Shown here in pieces: positions 4,794 to 48,669 of a stretch of DNA of 53,833 bases. This DNA comes from a virus (Duplodnaviria; Heunggongvirae; Uroviricota; Caudoviricetes): IMG/VR virus record IMGVR_UViG_2740892427_000003. One strand, written 5' to 3'. The position numbers were made by a program, and so were the translations under genes. How positions within the stretch are numbered: the stretch's first letter is position 1; the number at the start of each line of letters is the position of its first letter. Under the pieces are notes generated by a model that was not told the origin of the DNA, did no database searches, and saw only the letters and a program-made list of their open reading frames with translations.

Positions 4794-4934
4794 TTACTGC
4801 TTACACTGTAAGAACGCCGCAATCTCCGCGCCCGCTATCCGGAACCGGAACTCGCACAGTGAACTGTGGGTGATCCAGATAATGAGCACTACCGTGATAC
4901 AAATCACGGTGGTTTTTAACGGTTTTTGCGACAT
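4794..4934 (-). CDS. Hok/Gef-family type I toxin-like small membrane protein (46 aa)
   Basis: Not in the ORF track (<60 aa). Translation MSQKPLKTTVICITVVLIIWITHSSLCEFRFRIAGAEIAAFLQCKQ has the Hok pattern (N-terminal TM helix, SLCE, aromatic-basic segment, E-AAF); AAGGAG Shine-Dalgarno 8 nt upstream of ATG. Confidence 0.5.
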   Translation of the reverse strand: MSQKPLKTTVICITVVLIIWITHSSLCEFRFRIAGAEIAAFLQCKQ

Positions 4935-5132
4935 AAACGCTTGCTCCTTTTACGGAGAGGCGCTAACCTTCCACTTGTTGAAGGTAGGAACGTCAGGCCT
5001 CGGGTTAAACATGAATGTTTGTCCGGGGCCTTTTCACATCCGGCCTTCAGGTGCTCCCTCCGGCCATCAGCCAAAGGCACCCGCGCATAATGTACGGTTT
5101 TTGTCTCCTTCCGGCAATCCGGCTCCTCATGA

Positions 5133-8100
5133 TCACGAAATACTGATACCCGCCGTGGACTTCTTCATCACGACAACCAGCAGATCGCTGATACTCGCTG
5201 TCGGGTACCATCCATTCACCAGCCAGGCAGACACAGAAAACTCCAGCGTCATATGCCCCCTTCCTGCAGGCATATCAATCACCCCTGAATACACCTGAGA
5301 CTCAGCCAGCGCCGTCCTTTCAAAAAGCACCCTGCCGTTACATTTCACCATCAGCCGGCATGATGAATAAATATCGTTATGCTCTCTCTCATGTTTAGCG
5401 CCGCTGAAAGCCACTGCCGGGATCACAATTTGCCGGTCAAAAGGCTGATCGTCATAAATCCTGACGGTAATGGTCCCCGATGGCCACCGCTCCGGTGCGC
5501 GGGAGTCCCGCGGGAAAGCCTTCCCCACGGTTTTAACAATATCGCCTTCAATCTGGTTGGCAGACAGTTTTCCAAGTATCCGGCAGTTCTGGTTAATGGT
5601 CACATTATTGAGCGTGCCCGAGTTCGCACTGATATGTCCGCTGATGTCCGCATTGCGGGCCGTCAGCCTGCCCTCCGGCGTCAGGGAGAACGTCGGGGGA
5701 TTGCCGGACGAGGTGATGCTCACTGCAAACAGTCGCTTCAGGAACACATCGTTCATGAACAGCTGATTCCCCTGCGCCACAAACAGCGGCGTGGTGTTGC
5801 CGTTCTCCGGGTTAATCATCGCGATACGGTCCGCCTGCAGCAGAATATTGCTCAGGGGCTGGCCATCAGCATCCTCAATCCCCGCACCAATACCGGCAAC
5901 ATACGGAATGCCGTTTTTCGTTTTCTGCACCTTCAGCATGTACAGCGCAGCCAGGTCGTGATTTGTGCCTGTCTGCACCCGCTGTATCTGCTGTATGGTG
6001 GCACTCTGGTCTTCCAGGGTTTTACTGACCGTCTGCGTGATTTCATTGCGGGTTTCGGTGATGGTGGTCTTCATCTCCGCCATCTCATCATCAAGCTGGC
6101 TGTTATCAATCAGCTCCCACATCCCCTGTGCCAGATGCAGTTTTCCTATCTTTTCCCGAAACAGCCCCAGATACCCTTCTGCATCATTGCTGGCCCGGCC
6201 ACTGGCTTCCACAAACGCAGATTTCCCCACCAGGTTGACGCTGCGCACATAAAACCAGAAATCCTTCCCCGGCTTAATGTGCGGGCCGGAGACACTCCAC
6301 TGGCTGCCTGTCCCCAGATAACGGGCAGAGGTTTCCACCTGAGATGTGTCTGCGATTTTTGCCTCCGAAAACCAGAATTCAAATTGTACCGTCGGGTCAT
6401 ACACCGTAAGATGCGGGACCGCCGTTATCTGATAATACCCCGGCGTCAGTTCAATGCTGGCCGGTGCTGCCGGTGCGTTAATCCGGAACGTGGTGGTGGC
6501 AGGTTCGCCCTGCTGGCCGTAGCTGTTTATCGCCCTGACCGTCAGGGTGTATTCCCCGGGCGGCAGGCCACTGAAACGGTGCTCCGTGTCGGCAGTGATA
6601 GCGCTGGTCACCAGGCGGCTGCTTTCACCACTGCCACTGGTCAGGCGCAGACTGAAGCGCACGCCCTTCACCACCCGCGGCGTGTCCCATTTCGCCAGCG
6701 CCAGATACTGGCCGTCTGAGGCACTCACCTCCACCGTGAGGTGCTGCACAGCCGGCGGGATGACGCTGTTCAGTGAACCGGAGAGCGGCTCAAAGGTGGC
6801 CCCGTTATCCACGATGGCTTCTTTTTCCGGCACATGCTGCACCGCCGTGATGGCAAAGGTGCCGTCCGTGTTTTCCCGGATGGAAACACAGCGGAACAGG
6901 CGACGACGCAGTGACGGCAGGGAGAGTCCCCACACACCGTATGTCTCCACGCCATCCGGCAGGACGCTGACCTGTATCCGGTCCGGGGCGGGGTGTGCGG
7001 TGATGTCCACGCGCACCGGCTTACCGCTGCCGTTAATCAGGTTCACCGTCGATGTCCCTGTCTCCGGCAGGGTCACCTCACGGTCCAGCGTCAGGGTACG
7101 GCTGGCGGCATCCATGGACAGGATACGTCCGCCGGTCAGGGTCCCGGCGTAGTCGTTATCACAGATTTCAATGATGTCACCGGGCGTGTGCCGCAGCCCC
7201 TGTGACCCGAGCATGAAATCCACCGTCTGCGTTTCCAGCAGTTCTGTCTTTATCACCCACAGTCCGGCACGGTGGGCCTGACCGCGGCTGGTACAGCCAA
7301 ACGCATCCATCTTCAGCAGATTGCGCCCGTAGCGCAGGATGGCGTCCGGGTCTTCCACCAGTTCAGTGGAAGTCTGCCAGCCGTTCTGCGGGTCGGTGTA
7401 ATTCACCTCCACCGCAGTGTGCCGGTCCTTCAGGGCACTGAAGCTGTAGCGGAACCCCACGCCGTTATCATCCACCACCACATCGCTGTTGGTGTACGGC
7501 CACACCACATCCGACGGACGGTCCTGAACGAACGTCAGCGTCTGGCCGTTCCATACCGGCATACAGCGCATCGCCGAGCAGAAATCCCCCAGAACATCCC
7601 AGACCTTACGCTGCTGTGACAGGTACGCATTGAAAGTCATCCGCGGCTCTGTGCCCCCGAAACCATCCGGGACCGTCTGGTCGCAGTACTGCCCGATGGC
7701 ATACAGTGCCCACTTGTCCACATCCGCGGCCCCCAGGCGTTTTCCCATGCCGTAGCGCGGGTGGGTCAGCATGTCCCACAGGCACCAGGCCGGGTTATTG
7801 CTGTATGCCGGTTTCAGACTGCCGTCCCAGATACCGCTGTAGGTGCGTTTTTCCGGGTCATAGTTTGACGGCACCTGAATGATGCGACCACGGATATGGT
7901 AGTTCACCGTCAGCTGCTGGCCACCAAACTGCTCCGCATCCACCTGCAGCCCCACAATCGCCGTGTTCGGGTAGCACTGTTTCACATCGATGATTTCGGT
8001 GTATGACGACCACAGCGTTCTGTTCTGCAGCTGGTCCGTGGTGCTGTCCGCCGTCTCCCTGACCATCCGGATGTTAAAGGGGCGCTCAGGGAGATTATTC

Positions 8101-8606
8101 AGAATCACCGACATCAGGTACTGCGAGGTGGTTTTGCCGTTAATGGTGATATCCTTCTCCGTCACCCAGTGCCCGTTACGCTCAAGCTGAATCAGCAGCC
8201 GGACAGAAGAGGGATTACGGTCACCCTTTGAGGTGGTCTCCACCAGTGACTGCACCCCGAAGGTGACCCGCAGACGGTCAATGTTCGCTGACGTGATGGT
8301 GCGCGTCACCGGCTTTGCCTTCGTCACCTCCACGCCCAGTGCGGTTTCTGCCCCGGAGGACTCAAAGCCTTCCGGCGGTGTCTGCTCCTGCTCCCCGGCA
8401 CGCCAGACGGCGGTCACACCGTGTATCACGGGATTACCGTCCGTGTCCGTCAGCGGGGTTTTGTTCACCAGAATACTCTGCAGTCCCTTCACCGGGCCTT
8501 CCACCGGTCCCTCACCGATGGCATCAATCACGCTCATCATCTGCGTGGATTTGAGATTGTCCTTCGCCTCACGCGGTGTGTGCCCCTTGCCGCCCCCTTT
8601 ACCCAC
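5133..8606 (-). CDS. J: tail tip / host specificity protein J
   Basis: 1157 aa; N-terminus [22 protein letters not shown] and long collinear similarity to lambda J as recalled; GTG start with GGAGAGGGGG Shine-Dalgarno. Confidence 0.95.
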
Positions 8607-39921: not shown

Positions 39922-40276
39922 GCACACCCACCTCTGTAATTCTTATCTCCAGCCGTCCACCAGATACTGGCTGGCCACGTACAATATTGATTTCATCAAA
40001 CTGCTCATCGTCCATTAACAACCCTGCATGCGTCAGCGCATCCAGCGGCGCTTTCAGGATATTATCCAGGTCACGGCGGCGCTTATCCGGTGGCTCTGCA
40101 ATCACCTTTATCGCCAGCCTTCCGGACAGGCTTAATTTCAGCCGCTGCTGGCGAACAATAAGCGCCACTGCCCGGCGATAGCGCTTTCCCTCCTCAGATA
40201 TAAAATATGTGCTGCCACGACGTCGCCAGTAAGTATTCACCGTCGGCGGATAAGGCAAAACAAACTCTATACGCAT
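39914..40276 (-). CDS. rusA: Holliday junction resolvase RusA
   Basis: 120 aa; MRIEFVLPYPPTVNTYW...RRDLDNILKAPLDALTHAGLLMDDEQF typical of RusA. Confidence 0.85.
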   Translation of the reverse strand: MRIEFVLPYPPTVNTYWRRRGSTYFISEEGKRYRRAVALIVRQQRLKLSLSGRLAIKVIAEPPDKRRRDLDNILKAPLDALTHAGLLMDDEQFDEINIVRGQPVSGGRLEIRITEVGVHE

Positions 40277-40288
40277 CAGTAACCTCTT

Positions 40289-41371
40289 TTACCCAAGCAC
40301 GCCGGTTGCAAAGGCGTGATCAAGAAAACGAAAAATTAACTCAACCTGAGAGCCGTACTTTTTCTCAAACTCCAGCGGGTCTGCATGAAGTTCGTTGTGA
40401 TGTTCCCGGCACAACGGTAGCGTGAAAATATCGTGGGCCTTTGTCCCCATTCCCCCCTGACCATGACCAATCAGGTGATGCGGATCGTCAGCAGGCTTAC
40501 CACAACACGCACACGGCTGTGTCTTTACCCAGCGCGTGTATTTCTCATTAACCCAACGGCGACGTTTAGGCCGCTTCATGAACGATTCAGGAGACTCCGG
40601 ATCAACAGCGATACTGACAACCGTTTTTTTCTGTGGTGGATTTTGTTGCTGGTGGACGTGAAGTGGCAGCGCAATATTTTTTGTGCGCTGCTTCAGTATG
40701 CTGATGGCTGTCTGTTCTCCCGGTACGATGTCACTCTCACGGTATACGGAGCGGATTTTTTCCGCTGGTAATCCCAGCGAACGACGCGCTACTGCCTCAG
40801 GTAATGCATCCACCACCTGATTGCAGGCCGCCCACCAGGATAATTCGGCCAGCGATAACTCCCTCTCCTGCGTACCGCTTATTGCATGACGGATGACGTC
40901 AATCATCCAGGCAACCAGATTCTGCTGAGCAAGTTGATCGAGTGATTCTGATGTCTGGTCGCGCAGCTGGTTGTCACAGTGCCAGCACAACACCATCGCG
41001 CCGGTACCATAACGGTGAATGACGGTTTCGCTGTGATGATAATCGCCATGTGGCCACTGGCAGGATTTCACGTGACGTAATAACCAGTCAGACAGCGCAC
41101 CAGCACCGCCAGCGGCACGAATCACCCGTTCATTGCTGAAAAATGGCAGTAATGATTTATCCTCAGCCAGCGGCTGGCAAACGACAGGAACAACCCCGGA
41201 CGGCAAACTCCGCATGCTTTTGGGTTCCGGCTCCACCAGCACCCTGCCGCGATGAAAAACCGGCAGTAATTCGCGACCTGGCTTAATGACCACCAGGCCA
41301 AGTTCCGGGACCAGAACAGGTCGAAGTAATACCCGCACATTATCTCCAGACACGCTGACGGTAGCAGGCAT
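40289..41371 (-). CDS. DUF968-family protein with C-terminal HNH-like zinc-finger motif
   Basis: C-terminus QPCACCGKPADDPHHLIGHGQGGMGTKAHDIFTLPLCREHHNELH. Confidence 0.6.
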   Translation of the reverse strand: MPATVSVSGDNVRVLLRPVLVPELGLVVIKPGRELLPVFHRGRVLVEPEPKSMRSLPSGVVPVVCQPLAEDKSLLPFFSNERVIRAAGGAGALSDWLLRHVKSCQWPHGDYHHSETVIHRYGTGAMVLCWHCDNQLRDQTSESLDQLAQQNLVAWMIDVIRHAISGTQERELSLAELSWWAACNQVVDALPEAVARRSLGLPAEKIRSVYRESDIVPGEQTAISILKQRTKNIALPLHVHQQQNPPQKKTVVSIAVDPESPESFMKRPKRRRWVNEKYTRWVKTQPCACCGKPADDPHHLIGHGQGGMGTKAHDIFTLPLCREHHNELHADPLEFEKKYGSQVELIFRFLDHAFATGVLG

Positions 41372-41612
41372 TTGTTCGTGGCAGATGTGCGCGAACAGGA
41401 AGATATACAGAAACGGTCCAGGTCAGACGATCAACGTTCAGACTCCGCTCCACACGGACACCGCGACGCAGATACGCCTCTTGAAGCATATCTGCCTCAT
41501 CGGTCGTACAGAACAGATAGTGAAACCAGCCATACTGAGGCGTACGAAAACGCCACCCCCGCTTAATTTCCGGGTCGGCTTCAGAATTGTGGGATTTTAT
41601 GTGTTGTGTCAT
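41340..41612 (-). CDS. hypothetical protein (90 aa)
   Basis: ORF with ATG at 41610-41612; no recognised domain. Confidence 0.4.
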   Translation of the reverse strand: MTQHIKSHNSEADPEIKRGWRFRTPQYGWFHYLFCTTDEADMLQEAYLRRGVRVERSLNVDRLTWTVSVYLPVRAHLPRTNACYRQRVWR

Positions 41613-41734
41613 CGGATTCTCCGGTGACAGCAGGTGTCAGTTGTTCAGGCTGACGGCGCGAATTGTAAGTCAATACGCCTGGAATGTACAAACAGAAAAC
41701 CCGTCAGTAAGACGGGCTTAGCAAGCCGGGACGG

Positions 41735-42079
41735 TTACTTTAATAATTTCAGTGCCTTTACATCAACTTCAACACTGCTCAGGTCTTTATCAATTTCACC
41801 CTCAATTCTTACTTTGTCTTTCGGAGAAACATTCTGCCCGGCCCATACGCTGTCATCAATATCCGTGACAATTGTCCCGCTATTGTCACGAAACTCATAA
41901 CGTTCATCACCCACTTTTTTAATGATGCTCCCTTCAAGGATAACCCATGCATCATCCTTCAGTTCTTTTGCCTGCGCTACTGTTGAACGCTCTGCTTCAG
42001 GCCCCTGGAAACCACCCTGCTGTGCAAAAACGCCAAAAGACACACCGGAAATAAGTGCTGCAATCAATACCTTTTTCAT
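41735..42079 (-). CDS. YgiW/YdeI (BOF) family periplasmic OB-fold protein
   Basis: Signal peptide MKKVLIAALISGVSFGVFA; size and pattern of the BOF family. Confidence 0.7.
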   Translation of the reverse strand: MKKVLIAALISGVSFGVFAQQGGFQGPEAERSTVAQAKELKDDAWVILEGSIIKKVGDERYEFRDNSGTIVTDIDDSVWAGQNVSPKDKVRIEGEIDKDLSSVEVDVKALKLLK

Positions 42080-42200
42080 TCATAGTCCTCTTTCAGAAAT
42101 GAACATTCAAACAGCATTTTCAGTATGGTAAAGCGCGGGTGCGTTGAGGATGCCTGACACATCAGAGGTGGCGAGGGATTTCTCCCTCGCCTGGTCACTC

Positions 42201-42356
42201 TTACTTCTCAGATTCGTAGTCTACGAAGACAGCAACCTCCGTCTGGCCGGTTCGGATTCGTACCTCGCAGAGGTCTTTCCTCGTTACCAGTGCCGTCACA
42301 ACAACGGTAATACAGATGACGATCAGGGCGATTAACATCGCCTTTTGCTGCTTCAT
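42201..42356 (-). CDS. Hok/Gef-family type I toxin (hokC/gef-like)
   Basis: MKQQKAMLIALIVICITVVVTALVTRKDLCEVRIRTGQTEVAVFVDYESEK matches gef/hokC as recalled; ATG 42354-42356. Confidence 0.75.
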   Translation of the reverse strand: MKQQKAMLIALIVICITVVVTALVTRKDLCEVRIRTGQTEVAVFVDYESEK

Positions 42357-42646
42357 AGCCTGCTTCTCCTTGCCTTTCGGCACGTAAGAGGCTAACCTAC
42401 GTTTGTGAAGCATAGATTGGGCCTCAGATTAATGTTAAGCGTCCTGCAAGACGCGTAATGTTAACTGGGGCTTTTCTCTGTCTGCCTTACGGCGGCATGC
42501 CCGAGGCAGACAGCCTCAAGCACCCGCAGCAATTCTACTTAACTCTTCTTTCCCCGCAAACCGTTTTTATCCCCAGCGGCAAATCGAATACACCACCAGC
42601 GCCACCGCCATTGCAATACCAACATTTGAGAAGGCCTCAGGCCAGC

Positions 42647-43000
42647 TCATTGGCGCACCTCCTTCGGCGGTTCTGGTAGCGGCATCCAGTGTGTGGCTTC
42701 ACACACGATAGGCGCACCGAAACACTGCGCATACTGGAAGTCACCCGTATTATCCAGGTTAAAACCTGTAAACTGTTCCCCCGTGCTGGACACAAACAGT
42801 TGTACATCAACACCAACTGGCGGCATTCGCTCACTACAGCTTATCCAACCATCCGGAGTTACCGGAGAATTGCCAGCCTTGCACATGGCAATCTCCATGA
42901 TTTCAACCATATCTCCTGGTGGAATTTTACAATGCTGACCAATATGCCTCTGCTGCCTGGCATATTCGAGGATGTGCTCCAGTTTGGTTCGATCAATCAT
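42647..43000 (-). CDS. DUF551-like phage protein
   Basis: GWISCSERMPPVGVDVQLF motif. Confidence 0.5.
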   Translation of the reverse strand: MIDRTKLEHILEYARQQRHIGQHCKIPPGDMVEIMEIAMCKAGNSPVTPDGWISCSERMPPVGVDVQLFVSSTGEQFTGFNLDNTGDFQYAQCFGAPIVCEATHWMPLPEPPKEVRQ

Positions 43001-47317: not shown

Positions 47318-47418
47318 AACTACTCCTTAGTAAACACAACAAAAGAATACCCGCAGGTAAACAAAAGTCAATACCCCTGGGTTGTTTACCTTGCGGTAAT
47401 CGCCTCTATTATTTACCT
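47318..47418. promoter_or_regulatory. divergent promoter/operator region of the immunity switch
   Basis: Inverted copies of acccgcaggtaaacaa / ttgtttaccttgcggt and a related ataccccNNgggttgtttacc between the divergent cro-like and repressor genes. Confidence 0.45.
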
Positions 47419-47838
47419 ATGGACAAATATGAATTTAGACGACAGCAACTCATCAAAATTCGTGATGAGAAATGCGATGGTAAAGCGGTTAACGTGGCCA
47501 GAAAAATCGGCCGCGAGCCTTCTTATGTATCAAGAATGTTGTACCCAGAGGGGAAAAAAGGGAAAAAACGGATCGCTGATGATATGGTGGAGATTATCGA
47601 AGAATCCTTTGGGTTACCCCGGGGATGGATGGATGGTATCGTTTCATCATCAACGGACACAACCTCCAATTATGAAACAAGGGTTCTAACACCACGACAA
47701 CGTATTTTTTTAGATCTCTTGGACGAACTGCCAGAAAGCGAAGCGGATAACTTATTAAAAACTCTTGAAGAGAAAAAACAATATTACAATATGATCTACG
47801 AAGAAATCAGCAAAAAGAAAGCACGAAACGCATCATAG
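47419..47838 (+). CDS. prophage repressor (DicA-like architecture)
   Basis: HTH AVNVARKIGREPSYVSRML; C-terminal FLDLLDELPESEADNLLKTL resembles DicA; ATG has no upstream Shine-Dalgarno (possibly leaderless). Confidence 0.6.
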   Translation: MDKYEFRRQQLIKIRDEKCDGKAVNVARKIGREPSYVSRMLYPEGKKGKKRIADDMVEIIEESFGLPRGWMDGIVSSSTDTTSNYETRVLTPRQRIFLDLLDELPESEADNLLKTLEEKKQYYNMIYEEISKKKARNAS

Positions 47839-48102
47839 CCCACCAAACAACCTAGCACCAGTCAAGATACACCAAAAAACTTACCCATGGGTATTTACTT
47901 TTTGAATACCCACAGGTATTCTTCCTTTCATTCCAACCCACCCCGTCCCACAGAACGCAGGGCAATACTTAGAGTTACCCGGCAGTGGTCAGGGGTTAAG
48001 TAGCCAGCCCGAGGCGTATGAACATGACGGCGGGAACACTTTATATAACAGCGCAGCAGGTTTTTAGTTCCGCGACCCGGCGTTAAGGGGAAATGAGGTC
48101 AA

Positions 48103-48252
48103 CATGGATACGCTCAATCTTGGCAACAACGAATCTCTGGTATGCGGAGTATTCCCCAACCTAGACGGCACGTTTACCGCGATGACGTATACCAGAAGCA
48201 AAACGTTTAAAACTGAAGCTGGCGCGCGTCGCTGGTTAGCCAGAAACACTGA
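48103..48252 (+). CDS. small protein (49 aa), YdfA/YdaF-like (DUF1391)
   Basis: Not in the ORF track; GAGG 5 nt upstream of ATG; MDTLNLGNNESLVCGVFPNLDGTFTAMTYTRSKTFKTEAGARRWLARNTD. Confidence 0.45.
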
Positions 48253-48267
48253 CTGATGAGGTTGACG

Positions 48268-48669
48268 ATGGAATTTAAAGATTTACCAGTACCATTCCAG
48301 GAAATGGCAGCGAATATAGTTCGTTCTCAACTGGCGACTCTTGACCTGAGTACCGTAGAAAAAGAAACCATCGATAATATATCCGGTAACGTGCGTCGAA
48401 CCTTTATCGGGCTGTACGAAGAAAAGTGGCCATTCGGCGGACAACATTCGCCTGAAAACAAGAATCAAGCGAATGATGAGAAGCTGAAACACGTTATCGC
48501 CTTACTACTGGAAGATGCAAAACGTCTACAGCAACTGGAACCAAATGCAGGCACCGAAGCCCGCATCTGGATTGCCATAGAATCACTCAAATGTGAAAGC
48601 GATGATTATTTAAAAACCATAATTAAAACAACTCAGCTTTCTGAAGAGCTACCGAAGAAATTGCCATAA
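48268..48669 (+). CDS. hypothetical early-left protein (133 aa)
   Basis: GAGG 6 nt upstream of ATG at 48268; no recognised domain. Confidence 0.45.
   Translation: MEFKDLPVPFQEMAANIVRSQLATLDLSTVEKETIDNISGNVRRTFIGLYEEKWPFGGQHSPENKNQANDEKLKHVIALLLEDAKRLQQLEPNAGTEARIWIAIESLKCESDDYLKTIIKTTQLSEELPKKLP

Follow-up and report, generated by a model that had tools for sequence, protein, structure and literature searches.

A ygiW-linked copy of the hokW-mokW-sokW toxin-antitoxin cassette in the nin region of a lambdoid prophage

Introduction

What role might a Hok/Gef-family toxin gene play when it lies side by side with a gene for a periplasmic YgiW-like protein among the early genes of a lambdoid phage? 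The question is raised by the IMG/VR virus record IMGVR_UViG_2740892427_000003, a caudoviricete sequence of 53,833 nucleotides that was analyzed as a whole (the window). A first-pass annotation, made from the letters of the sequence, had regarded the two genes as accessory and proposed that they contribute to stress tolerance or to a plasmid-like addiction to the prophage. Here, we report that the region is very probably an intact copy of the hokW-mokW-sokW type I toxin-antitoxin cassette of Shiga toxin (Stx)-type lambdoid phages, with a ygiW-like gene fused on its 3′ side. The cassette is already known: it has been annotated in Shiga-toxin phages since 933W and was tested experimentally in 2021. 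The new points are modest and positional, namely the location between genes P and Q here as against near attR in 933W, and the placement of the ygiW-like gene between the fold-back inhibition element (fbi) and the terminator.

Results

A mobile cassette shared with Stx phages

In blastn comparisons with phage 933W, the 0.98 kb cassette was 93.5% identical over 976 bp, and the flanks were unrelated save for short DUF551-like matches. The downstream break in homology was found just 3′ of the U-run of the terminator. The segment was detected by megablast in 106 phage records, 45 of which held at least 80% of it; these were mostly Stx1- and Stx2-converting phages, and the feature names in these records were hokW, mokW, sokW and "similar to YgiW and YdeI". 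Among complete Escherichia coli genomes, a 951-bp query was 100% identical in eight chromosomes of Shiga toxin-producing E. coli, where the genes are labeled "Hok/Gef family protein" and "YgiW/YdeI family stress tolerance OB fold protein", and the cassette was present at a coverage of at least 80% in 550 of 5426 genomes. These counts make it usable as a marker.

All sequence elements of the cassette (promoter, tac, ucb, mok, Sok promoter and terminator, hok, and fbi) were intact and conserved, with no frameshift and no insertion sequence (IS); their coordinates are collected in Table 1. The first-pass annotation had both coding sequences exact to the base, but it made no mention of mok, the leader, Sok RNA or tac and fbi, and did not recognize the locus under the name hokW/mokW/sokW. 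Its worry that the copies might be frameshifted or promoterless proved groundless for hok and sok, both of which have promoter sequences and are undisrupted.

Table 1 Features of the cassette in the window.
Feature	Coordinates	Strand	Basis or details
Whole mobile cassette (hok promoter, mok/hok, sok, ygiW-like gene, terminator)	41688..42663	n/a	Common to phage 933W (blastn)
Putative hok/mok promoter	42532..42560	-	Weak -35 TTTGCG/TTGCGG at ~42560-42554; -10 TAGAAT at 42537-42532; read from sequence
Core hok mRNA, 5′ tac to just past 3′ fbi	42125..42527	-	RNA folding
tac, 5′ translational-activator element, GCGGGUGCUUGAGG	42514..42527	-	RNA folding, Rfam consensus structure
hok mRNA 5′ leader	42351..42525	-	Rfam RF01794 "sok" match, hok-sense strand
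Sok antisense RNA, 71 nt (5′ single-stranded tail, long terminator hairpin, UUUU)	42405..42475 (about)	+	Aligned from AF125520 sokW
Sok promoter	42370..42398	+	-35 TTGCCT at 42370-75, 17-nt spacer, -10 TAACCT at 42393-98
mok reading frame, 70 aa, in-frame N-terminal extension of hok	42201..42413	-	List of open reading frames
hok toxin gene, 51 aa	42201..42356	-	Pfam HOK_GEF E 3.4e-23; 49/51 identical to HokW
Hairpin GGCGAGGGA-GAAA-UCCCUCGCC just 3′ of hok stop codon	42170..42191	-	In full-length and truncated folds
fbi, fold-back inhibition element, CCUCAACGCACCCGC	42135..42149	-	Pairs with tac in full-length fold
ygiW-like BOF-family OB-fold protein, predicted periplasmic, 114 aa	41735..42079	-	Pfam BOF, NCBIfam NF033674, PDB 1NNX
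Intrinsic terminator, 9-bp stem then UUUUCUGUUUG	41697..41719	-	Terminator scan; marks cassette end

The identification of the toxin as a member of the Hok/Gef family was borne out by its 51-residue product, MKQQKAMLIALIVICITVVVTALVTRKDLCEVRIRTGQTEVAVFVDYESEK. It matched Pfam PF01848 (HOK_GEF) with 81.4 bits against a cut-off of 22, over profile positions 1-42 of 42, and in addition to its near-identity with HokW of 933W it shared 45 of 51 residues with K-12 HokD and 42 of 50 with K-12 HokC/Gef, the alignment proposed at first pass. The protein has the length typical of the family (about 50 residues), an N-terminal hydrophobic helix and a conserved cysteine in its C-terminal part. The hydrophobic stretch AMLIALIVICITVVVTALV is followed by KDLCEVRIRTGQTEVAVF, a segment that is the same in HokC, HokD, and HokW. 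The mok frame ends at the same stop codon as hok, in the geometry annotated for mokW of 933W and mokC of K-12; Mok differed from its 933W counterpart in four residues, with the N-terminus MLHKRR here and MLNTCR in 933W.

The ratio of nonsynonymous to synonymous substitution rates (dN/dS) of hok was 0.13-0.20 against the 933W and hokC copies. Against the closer hokD and pTA13-2 copies it was 0.41-0.51, values based on only 12-13 differences. For the BOF gene, dN/dS was 0.13-0.26 against 933W and against an 83%-identical divergent variant. These low ratios (for hok, those against 933W and divergent copies) indicate that both genes are under purifying selection.

One might suspect an inactive relic, as with the chromosomal hok loci of K-12. 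Partial hok matches were indeed present in most complete E. coli genomes (4726 of 5426), and K-12 hokD, which occupies an equivalent nin position by ydfU (DUF968) and the Q-like ydfT, breaks off 14 nt 5′ of the hok start codon. Yet with every element intact in the window, no IS or frameshift, low dN/dS and a functional near-identical copy in the Sakai prophage Sp5, we regard a relic as extremely unlikely.

A further hok-like gene was found in the same prophage, an open reading frame (ORF) of 46 codons at 4794..4934 on the minus strand (Pfam HOK_GEF E 2.4e-11; Hok/Gef in RefSeq). It belongs to a divergent second hok/sok-like locus (4794..5082, minus strand) between the tail-tip gene J (5133..8606) and a tail-fibre gene. 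The leader of this locus (4923..5082) gave a sub-threshold match to the Rfam sok model, with 48.5 bits against 59 and an E-value of 1.4e-9.

The Sok antisense RNA and its promoter

The position of Sok was assigned by homology, by mapping sokW of AF125520 (58664..58734, on the strand opposite to hokW) through the blastn offset. Like K-12 sokC, which overlaps the first 9 nt of mokC, Sok of the window overlaps the start of mok by 9 nt. The predicted RNA folded at -30.0 kcal/mol (z -4.67) into the 5′ tail and single long hairpin given in Table 1. Its promoter sequence is the same as in 933W and Sp5. For their sokW promoter-less construct, Takada et al. changed the -10 hexamer TAACCT with primer YO-421 (PMC8621323), and comparison with this primer showed that the hexamer of the window is identical to the one they destroyed. 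Hence, sokW homology, promoter hexamers and a hairpin with UUUU all point to the antisense RNA expected of a hok/sok locus. The first-pass annotation had suggested looking for a sok promoter at 42357-42450; the promoter does lie inside this zone, but Sok RNA extends beyond it, to about 42475.

Sok of the window and SokW were identical at 64 of 71 nt. Of the seven differences, four belong to the 5′ recognition tail and lie among nt 1-16. When the first 25 nt of Sok were paired with the target of the same allele, the predicted duplex energy was -47 kcal/mol, as against -33 kcal/mol for the other allele's target. Co-resident cassettes with differing Sok alleles may be partially insulated from each other.

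The -10 TAGAAT of the putative hok promoter lies 4-6 nt upstream of the conserved GCGGGUGCUUGAGG, and both the hexamer and this spacing are the same in 933W; K-12 hokC has TATAAT at this position. Judged from these hexamers, the hok promoter is probably weak. A consensus promoter scan of 41300..42900 reported neither the Sok nor the hok promoter, both of which fall below its 4-of-6 rule.

Another promoter-like site, TTAACA-18-TATGCT (42409..42438, minus strand), was observed in the hok leader, a short way 5′ of the mok start codon, and it may be a chance match. In plasmid pTA13-2, a promoter-like site made up of these hexamers, likewise 18 nt apart, lies in the hok leader upstream of the hok start.

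Two predicted conformations of the hok mRNA

The hok leader matched the whole of Rfam model RF01794 (model positions 1-157 of 157) in cmscan, with 117.7 bits against a gathering score of 59 and an E-value of 3.2e-26. Although the model is called "sok antitoxin", the match runs on the hok-sense strand over the whole hok 5′ untranslated region (157 positions) and ends at the hok ATG; therefore, the model describes the hok mRNA leader and not the antisense RNA of about 60-70 nt. The match was rejected as a means of locating Sok, since it lies on the wrong strand and spans the entire untranslated region, and annotations that copy it would give "sok" an incorrect strand and length.

In the minimum-free-energy fold from 42527 to 42120 (-170.4 kcal/mol, z -6.95), the first 14 nt (tac, 42527-42514) pair with fbi CCUCAACGCACCCGC. 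When the last 45 nt were removed, tac switched in the predicted fold to AAAGCCCC (ucb), as in the Rfam consensus structure. In this 3′-truncated fold a Sok-target hairpin, GAGGCC..GCCUC, also forms with its loop facing the 5′ tail of Sok, again matching the Rfam consensus. The hok RNA is thus predicted to encode both conformations of the paradigm established for plasmid R1. In R1, work from the Gerdes laboratory reportedly found the full-length hok mRNA inert and the 3′-processed hok mRNA active.

Comparison of the window with 933W revealed compensatory changes in two hairpins. In the hairpin after the hok stop codon, GGCGAGGGAG../..TCCCTCGCC stands against GCGGGGGAG../..TCTCCCGC in 933W, and in the first leader hairpin CUGUCUGCC/GGCAGACAG stands against CUAUCUGCC/GGCAGAUAG. 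The fbi element was invariant in six cassette variants, and it is also the last segment in common with K-12 hokD.

On the R1 paradigm, the cassette would most likely work as follows. A weak constitutive promoter would yield a stable hok mRNA, which the pairing of its 5′ end (tac) with the 3′ fbi would render translationally inert. The short, unstable Sok RNA, made from its own promoter inside the leader, would pair with the translation-initiation region of mok and prevent mok translation; because hok translation would be coupled to that of mok, hok would remain silent too. Once Sok is gone, Hok would be made, insert into the inner membrane and collapse it. The ygiW-like gene, expressed as a second, distal cistron of the hok mRNA or through transcription running on from the early operon, would provide a Sec-exported periplasmic OB-fold protein.

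A probable helper of lysis and release

The toxin-antitoxin activity and the effect upon induction have been demonstrated by others on a near-identical copy, that of Sp5. Takada et al. (2021) found that HokW arrests growth and that SokW, expressed from its own promoter, neutralizes it, partly via RNase III and Hfq (PMC8621323). After mitomycin C treatment, SokW vanished and HokW appeared in the inner membrane in a RecA-dependent manner; deletion of hokW-sokW delayed growth arrest and halved phage release, while growth of the lysogen was unaffected (PMC8621323). By analogy with this 96%-identical HokW, the best-supported role of the cassette in the window is that of a helper of lysis and release upon induction.

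The same data bear on the addiction proposed at first pass, in which stable hok mRNA would bring about post-segregational killing of cells that lose the prophage, as it does for plasmid R1. Every element of the R1-type killing circuit is present, and the original 933W annotation notes "prophage maintenance". The HokW experiments, however, revealed no growth effect of the deletion, a RecA-dependent activation, and a benefit in release (doubled by the toxin at induction) rather than in stabilization (PMC8621323). Moreover, an integrated prophage is not lost by mis-segregation, and its excision normally leads to lytic growth. We hence consider an addiction module quite improbable.

Exclusion of other phages is an unlikely alternative. 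A superinfecting lytic phage would stop host transcription, Sok would be depleted and Hok would kill the cell before the invader matures. Such a role would agree with the lower plating efficiency and plaque size of T4 on cells with R1 hok/sok on a high-copy plasmid (cited in PMC8621323), and the two further toxin-type genes of the prophage (hok at 4794..4934 and a PemK-like gene at 38637..39116) would fit a defence-rich accessory load. On the other hand, the R1 effect was modest and needed a high copy number, and abortive infection of this kind would be compatible with, and not exclusive of, the release-helper role.

The ygiW-like gene product

The assignment of the second gene product to the BOF family was confirmed by several profiles. 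It matched Pfam PF04076 with 114.4 bits against a cut-off of 25.8 (E 3e-33) and NCBIfam NF033674 with 135.5 bits against 35 (E 8e-40), and it also passed TIGR00156 (YgiW/YdeI) with 112 bits against 108.15. The nearest solved structure was that of E. coli YgiW (PDB 1NNX, E 4.6e-29), with 49 of 94 residues identical; this 52% identity settled the ygiW alignment that the first-pass annotation had proposed as a check. Residues 1-19, MKKVLIAALISGVSFGVFA, look by eye like a Sec signal peptide, with K-K, a hydrophobic core and a VFA/QQ pattern, in keeping with the signal peptide claimed earlier, and in the alignment the next residues, QQGGFQGP, coincide with the start (residue 1) of the 1NNX chain. 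The protein was identical to L0136 of 933W at 111 of 114 positions.

The stress tolerance proposed at first pass comes from the family name, and the protein may be an envelope- or stress-related product of lysogenic conversion. A literature search on the phage ygiW homologue (ygiW together with Stx, lysogen or 933W) found no study.

Linkage of hok and the BOF gene

From IMG/VR, 47 phage contigs with the BOF protein were recovered, 45 of which cover the upstream region. In all 45, hok lies at a fixed distance directly upstream of the BOF gene. Conversely, 23 chromosomal ygiW orthologues of other genera (Rahnella, Ewingella, and others; about 50% identity), among the matches listed, had no hok within 2.5 kb. 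The fixed linkage in the phages and the hok-less chromosomal orthologues therefore look like the result of one ancestral fusion that was inherited as a unit. An independent association of hok and BOF genes outside the phage cassette was considered and rejected, as the scan of genome contigs gave only chromosomal ygiW orthologues among the matches listed.

A functional coupling of the two products, for example with the ygiW-like protein as a periplasmic modulator or buffer of the periplasmic C-terminal domain of Hok instead of an independent stress gene, could also account for this pattern. Both products would act at the envelope, the two genes are probably on a shared transcript, and the linkage and spacing are invariant across all 45 phage loci in two or three genomic contexts. 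A single ancestral insertion suffices for the linkage, however; the chromosomal orthologues listed have no nearby hok, and R1 and other plasmid hok/sok loci work without a BOF partner. The pBAD18-hokW-sokW construct of Takada et al., whose insert stops ~33 nt into the ygiW-like gene (reverse primer YO-433), reproduced the toxin-antitoxin behaviour in the absence of the BOF protein. Such coupling thus appears very improbable.

In hok/sok loci, a terminator is generally expected directly 3′ of fbi, so that 3′ trimming can remove fbi. In the plasmid copy pTA13-2, it is found about 20 nt after fbi. In the window no terminator directly follows fbi, and the next one is that at 41719..41697, which was the sole terminator-like site on the minus strand in 41300..42900 and is kept in all cassette variants. 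In the spacer that runs from fbi (42135) to the BOF start (42079), the same scan listed neither a promoter-like nor a terminator-like site. Comparison of cassette variants whose BOF genes are down to 87% identity showed conservation in this spacer solely of a good Shine-Dalgarno sequence, AAGAGGA, which is 6 nt from the BOF ATG; a promoter or terminator hidden in the spacer was rejected on these grounds. As the BOF gene lies between fbi and the sole terminator and has no detectable promoter of its own, we infer that it is co-transcribed with hok, as the distal cistron of the hok transcript and/or through early-operon read-through. The earlier concern about promoterless copies would apply to the BOF gene in the sense that it seems to lack a promoter of its own, although upstream transcription plausibly serves it.

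A more far-reaching proposal is that the ygiW-like gene displaced the hok terminator, so that the native hok-ygiW mRNA would be bicistronic, about 0.83 kb long with its 3′ end some 440 nt past fbi, that the BOF protein would be tied to Hok, and that activation would occur by read-through. If so, R1-type activation by 3′ exonucleolytic removal of fbi would be unworkable, and read-through from the phage early operon would be needed instead. In both known contexts the cassette is co-oriented with the upstream early genes, and no terminator was found between them. Read-through would meet the Sok promoter head-on and silence it, which would explain why SokW is lost on induction. Lysogens would express the periplasmic BOF protein constitutively, the stable hok mRNA being its template, its function would be linked to that of Hok, and the published phenotypes of Delta-hokW-sokW::km might be partly polar on the ygiW-like gene. 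We judge this proposal to be unlikely as it stands.

Genomic position and neighboring genes

The first-pass annotation had located hok and the BOF gene in the nin region, and both the position and the gene order were upheld by profile matches and the RefSeq annotation. The flanking genes for DUF551 (42647..43000) and DUF968 (40289..41371) were confirmed, and an ORF of 90 codons without a family match (41340..41612; orf90) lies between the BOF gene and the DUF968 gene. In a near-identical prophage of E. coli 2012EL-2448, RefSeq gives the order P, DUF1627, DNA-binding, DUF4406, Ead/Ea22, hypothetical, DUF551, Hok, YgiW/YdeI, hypothetical, DUF968, RusA, Q, which places the cassette between the replication gene P and the antiterminator gene Q. 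Most of the 47 IMG/VR contigs likewise carry it in the nin region, followed by orf90 and the DUF968 gene, and three contigs showed a third downstream context; in every context, a DUF551-like gene precedes the cassette on the same strand. The claim that the genes are accessory agrees with the occurrence of the same cassette at a wholly different place, near attR, in 933W and Sp5. An equation of orf90 with rem of Qin was rejected because there was no similarity.

Within the cassette, upstream of the hok promoter, a hydrophobic ORF of 27 codons, MSWPEAFSNVGIAMAVALVVYSICRWG (42567..42650, minus strand), starts in overlap with the stop codon of the DUF551 gene (ATGA). It was open in 32 of 37 phage contigs, the commonest variant having mostly third-position changes, and in five it had a stop at codon 3; it might encode a small membrane protein.

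Several further observations were made elsewhere in the prophage. A gene for a PemK/MazF-like toxin (38637..39116, minus strand; Pfam E 8.3e-14) lies just downstream of the Q gene (39232..39927). A link to stx was rejected, as there is no stx gene at the usual place (34778..37946) and a methylase-like ORF is found there instead. This region holds an intact N6_N4 DNA methylase gene (36888..37946, minus strand), for which the RefSeq prophage, 99.8% identical otherwise, has a frameshift annotated, and a weakly N6-methylase-like ORF (35577..36572, minus strand) annotated as subunit M of a type I restriction-modification system. The prophage also carries three tRNAs (36601..36847) and a nanS-p-like esterase gene, upstream of which are two copies of the small RNA STnc100 on the minus strand (35270..35476, 134.9 bits; 34778..34990, 164.6 bits).

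Between genes for a tail protein and minor tail protein L lies a full-length porin gene annotated ompC (~11526..12680, minus strand; coordinates transferred from RefSeq by alignment). Tandem repeats of about 162 bp (~19900..21313) lie inside a gene annotated as phage portal protein ("frameshifted" in RefSeq) and comprise more units than in the reference genome. The sole large difference from the 2012EL-2448 prophage was at 47323..48593, where that prophage has IS1A between the cI/cro-like regulators and the upstream genes and the window has ~1.27 kb of other sequence.

Discussion

The present copy is best seen as a further intact allele of a characterized phage toxin-antitoxin cassette, in a second genomic position. 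Several points weigh against a simple transfer of function from Sp5 and against parts of this interpretation. The biology at the nin position could differ from that in Sp5, where the cassette sits near attR; Sok (7 of 71 nt) and Mok (four residues) differ from the Sp5-type alleles on which activity was measured; and the hok and Sok promoters are weak matches to the consensus that the promoter scan passed over. As to the second gene, its product failed the equivalog model for YdeI (OmdA), NF007471, with 65.6 bits against a cut-off of 179, and the case for co-transcription is built on absences, namely of promoter-like and terminator-like sites in the spacer.

A genome-wide association study of haemolytic uraemic syndrome reported that "ygiW_2" and a "mokC-like" group, a pair that depend on each other, are associated with the syndrome, as are ydfU-like and Q-like genes (PMC11950266). 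Since these genes adjoin in one phage segment, as they do in the window, the signal likely reflects hitch-hiking through linkage to Stx2a phages and not independent virulence factors.

Comparison with known systems

The closest known system is hokW-mokW-sokW with L0136 in 933W and Sp5 (AF125520), whose gene order and spacing, Sok promoter, hok -10, tac, fbi, and terminator all recur in the window. The difference lies in the surroundings. In 933W, Sp5 and an Stx1 phage, the cassette is near attR/attP, after the giant tail-fibre/LPD5 gene and downstream of ant, DksA-like, and DUF551-like genes, whereas in the window it occupies the nin region, between DUF551 and orf90-DUF968-RusA-Q.

With hok/sok of plasmid R1, the cassette shares a weak hok promoter, the coupling of mok and hok, a Sok antisense RNA over the mok start, tac-fbi pairing and a refolded active form, as predicted here; the toxins are only distantly similar, HokW and R1 Hok being 44% identical (PMC8621323). 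The R1 locus is plasmid-borne and serves plasmid stabilization, whereas the cassette is phage-borne and the reported role of hokW is phage release. Furthermore, the terminator expected after fbi is replaced in the window by a second gene followed by a terminator.

Two chromosomal loci of K-12 are also closely related. hokD (relF), in the cryptic prophage Qin, is 92% identical at the nucleotide level over window positions 42127..42370, from 14 nt 5′ of the hok start to just past fbi, and lies upstream of the DUF968 gene ydfU (82% identical) and the Q-like ydfT. In contrast to the window, hokD has lost leader, mok, and sok (relBE being upstream), has no BOF gene and carries its own terminator, AACCCGCTTCGGCGGGTTTTT, directly after fbi. 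The homology ends at the 5′ arm of this terminator, where the window continues with the BOF gene. The hokC/gef-mokC-sokC locus, with ~75% nucleotide identity, has the same in-frame mok extension, but it has IS186 directly downstream and no BOF gene, and its Sok terminator hairpin is 18 nt shorter than that of the window.

Finally, the BOF protein belongs to the same families as E. coli YgiW (1NNX; VisP in Salmonella) and YdeI/OmdA, and its N-terminus resembles a signal peptide. It differs from these in being phage-borne, shorter (114 residues) and linked to hok, whereas the chromosomal orthologues are not hok-linked.

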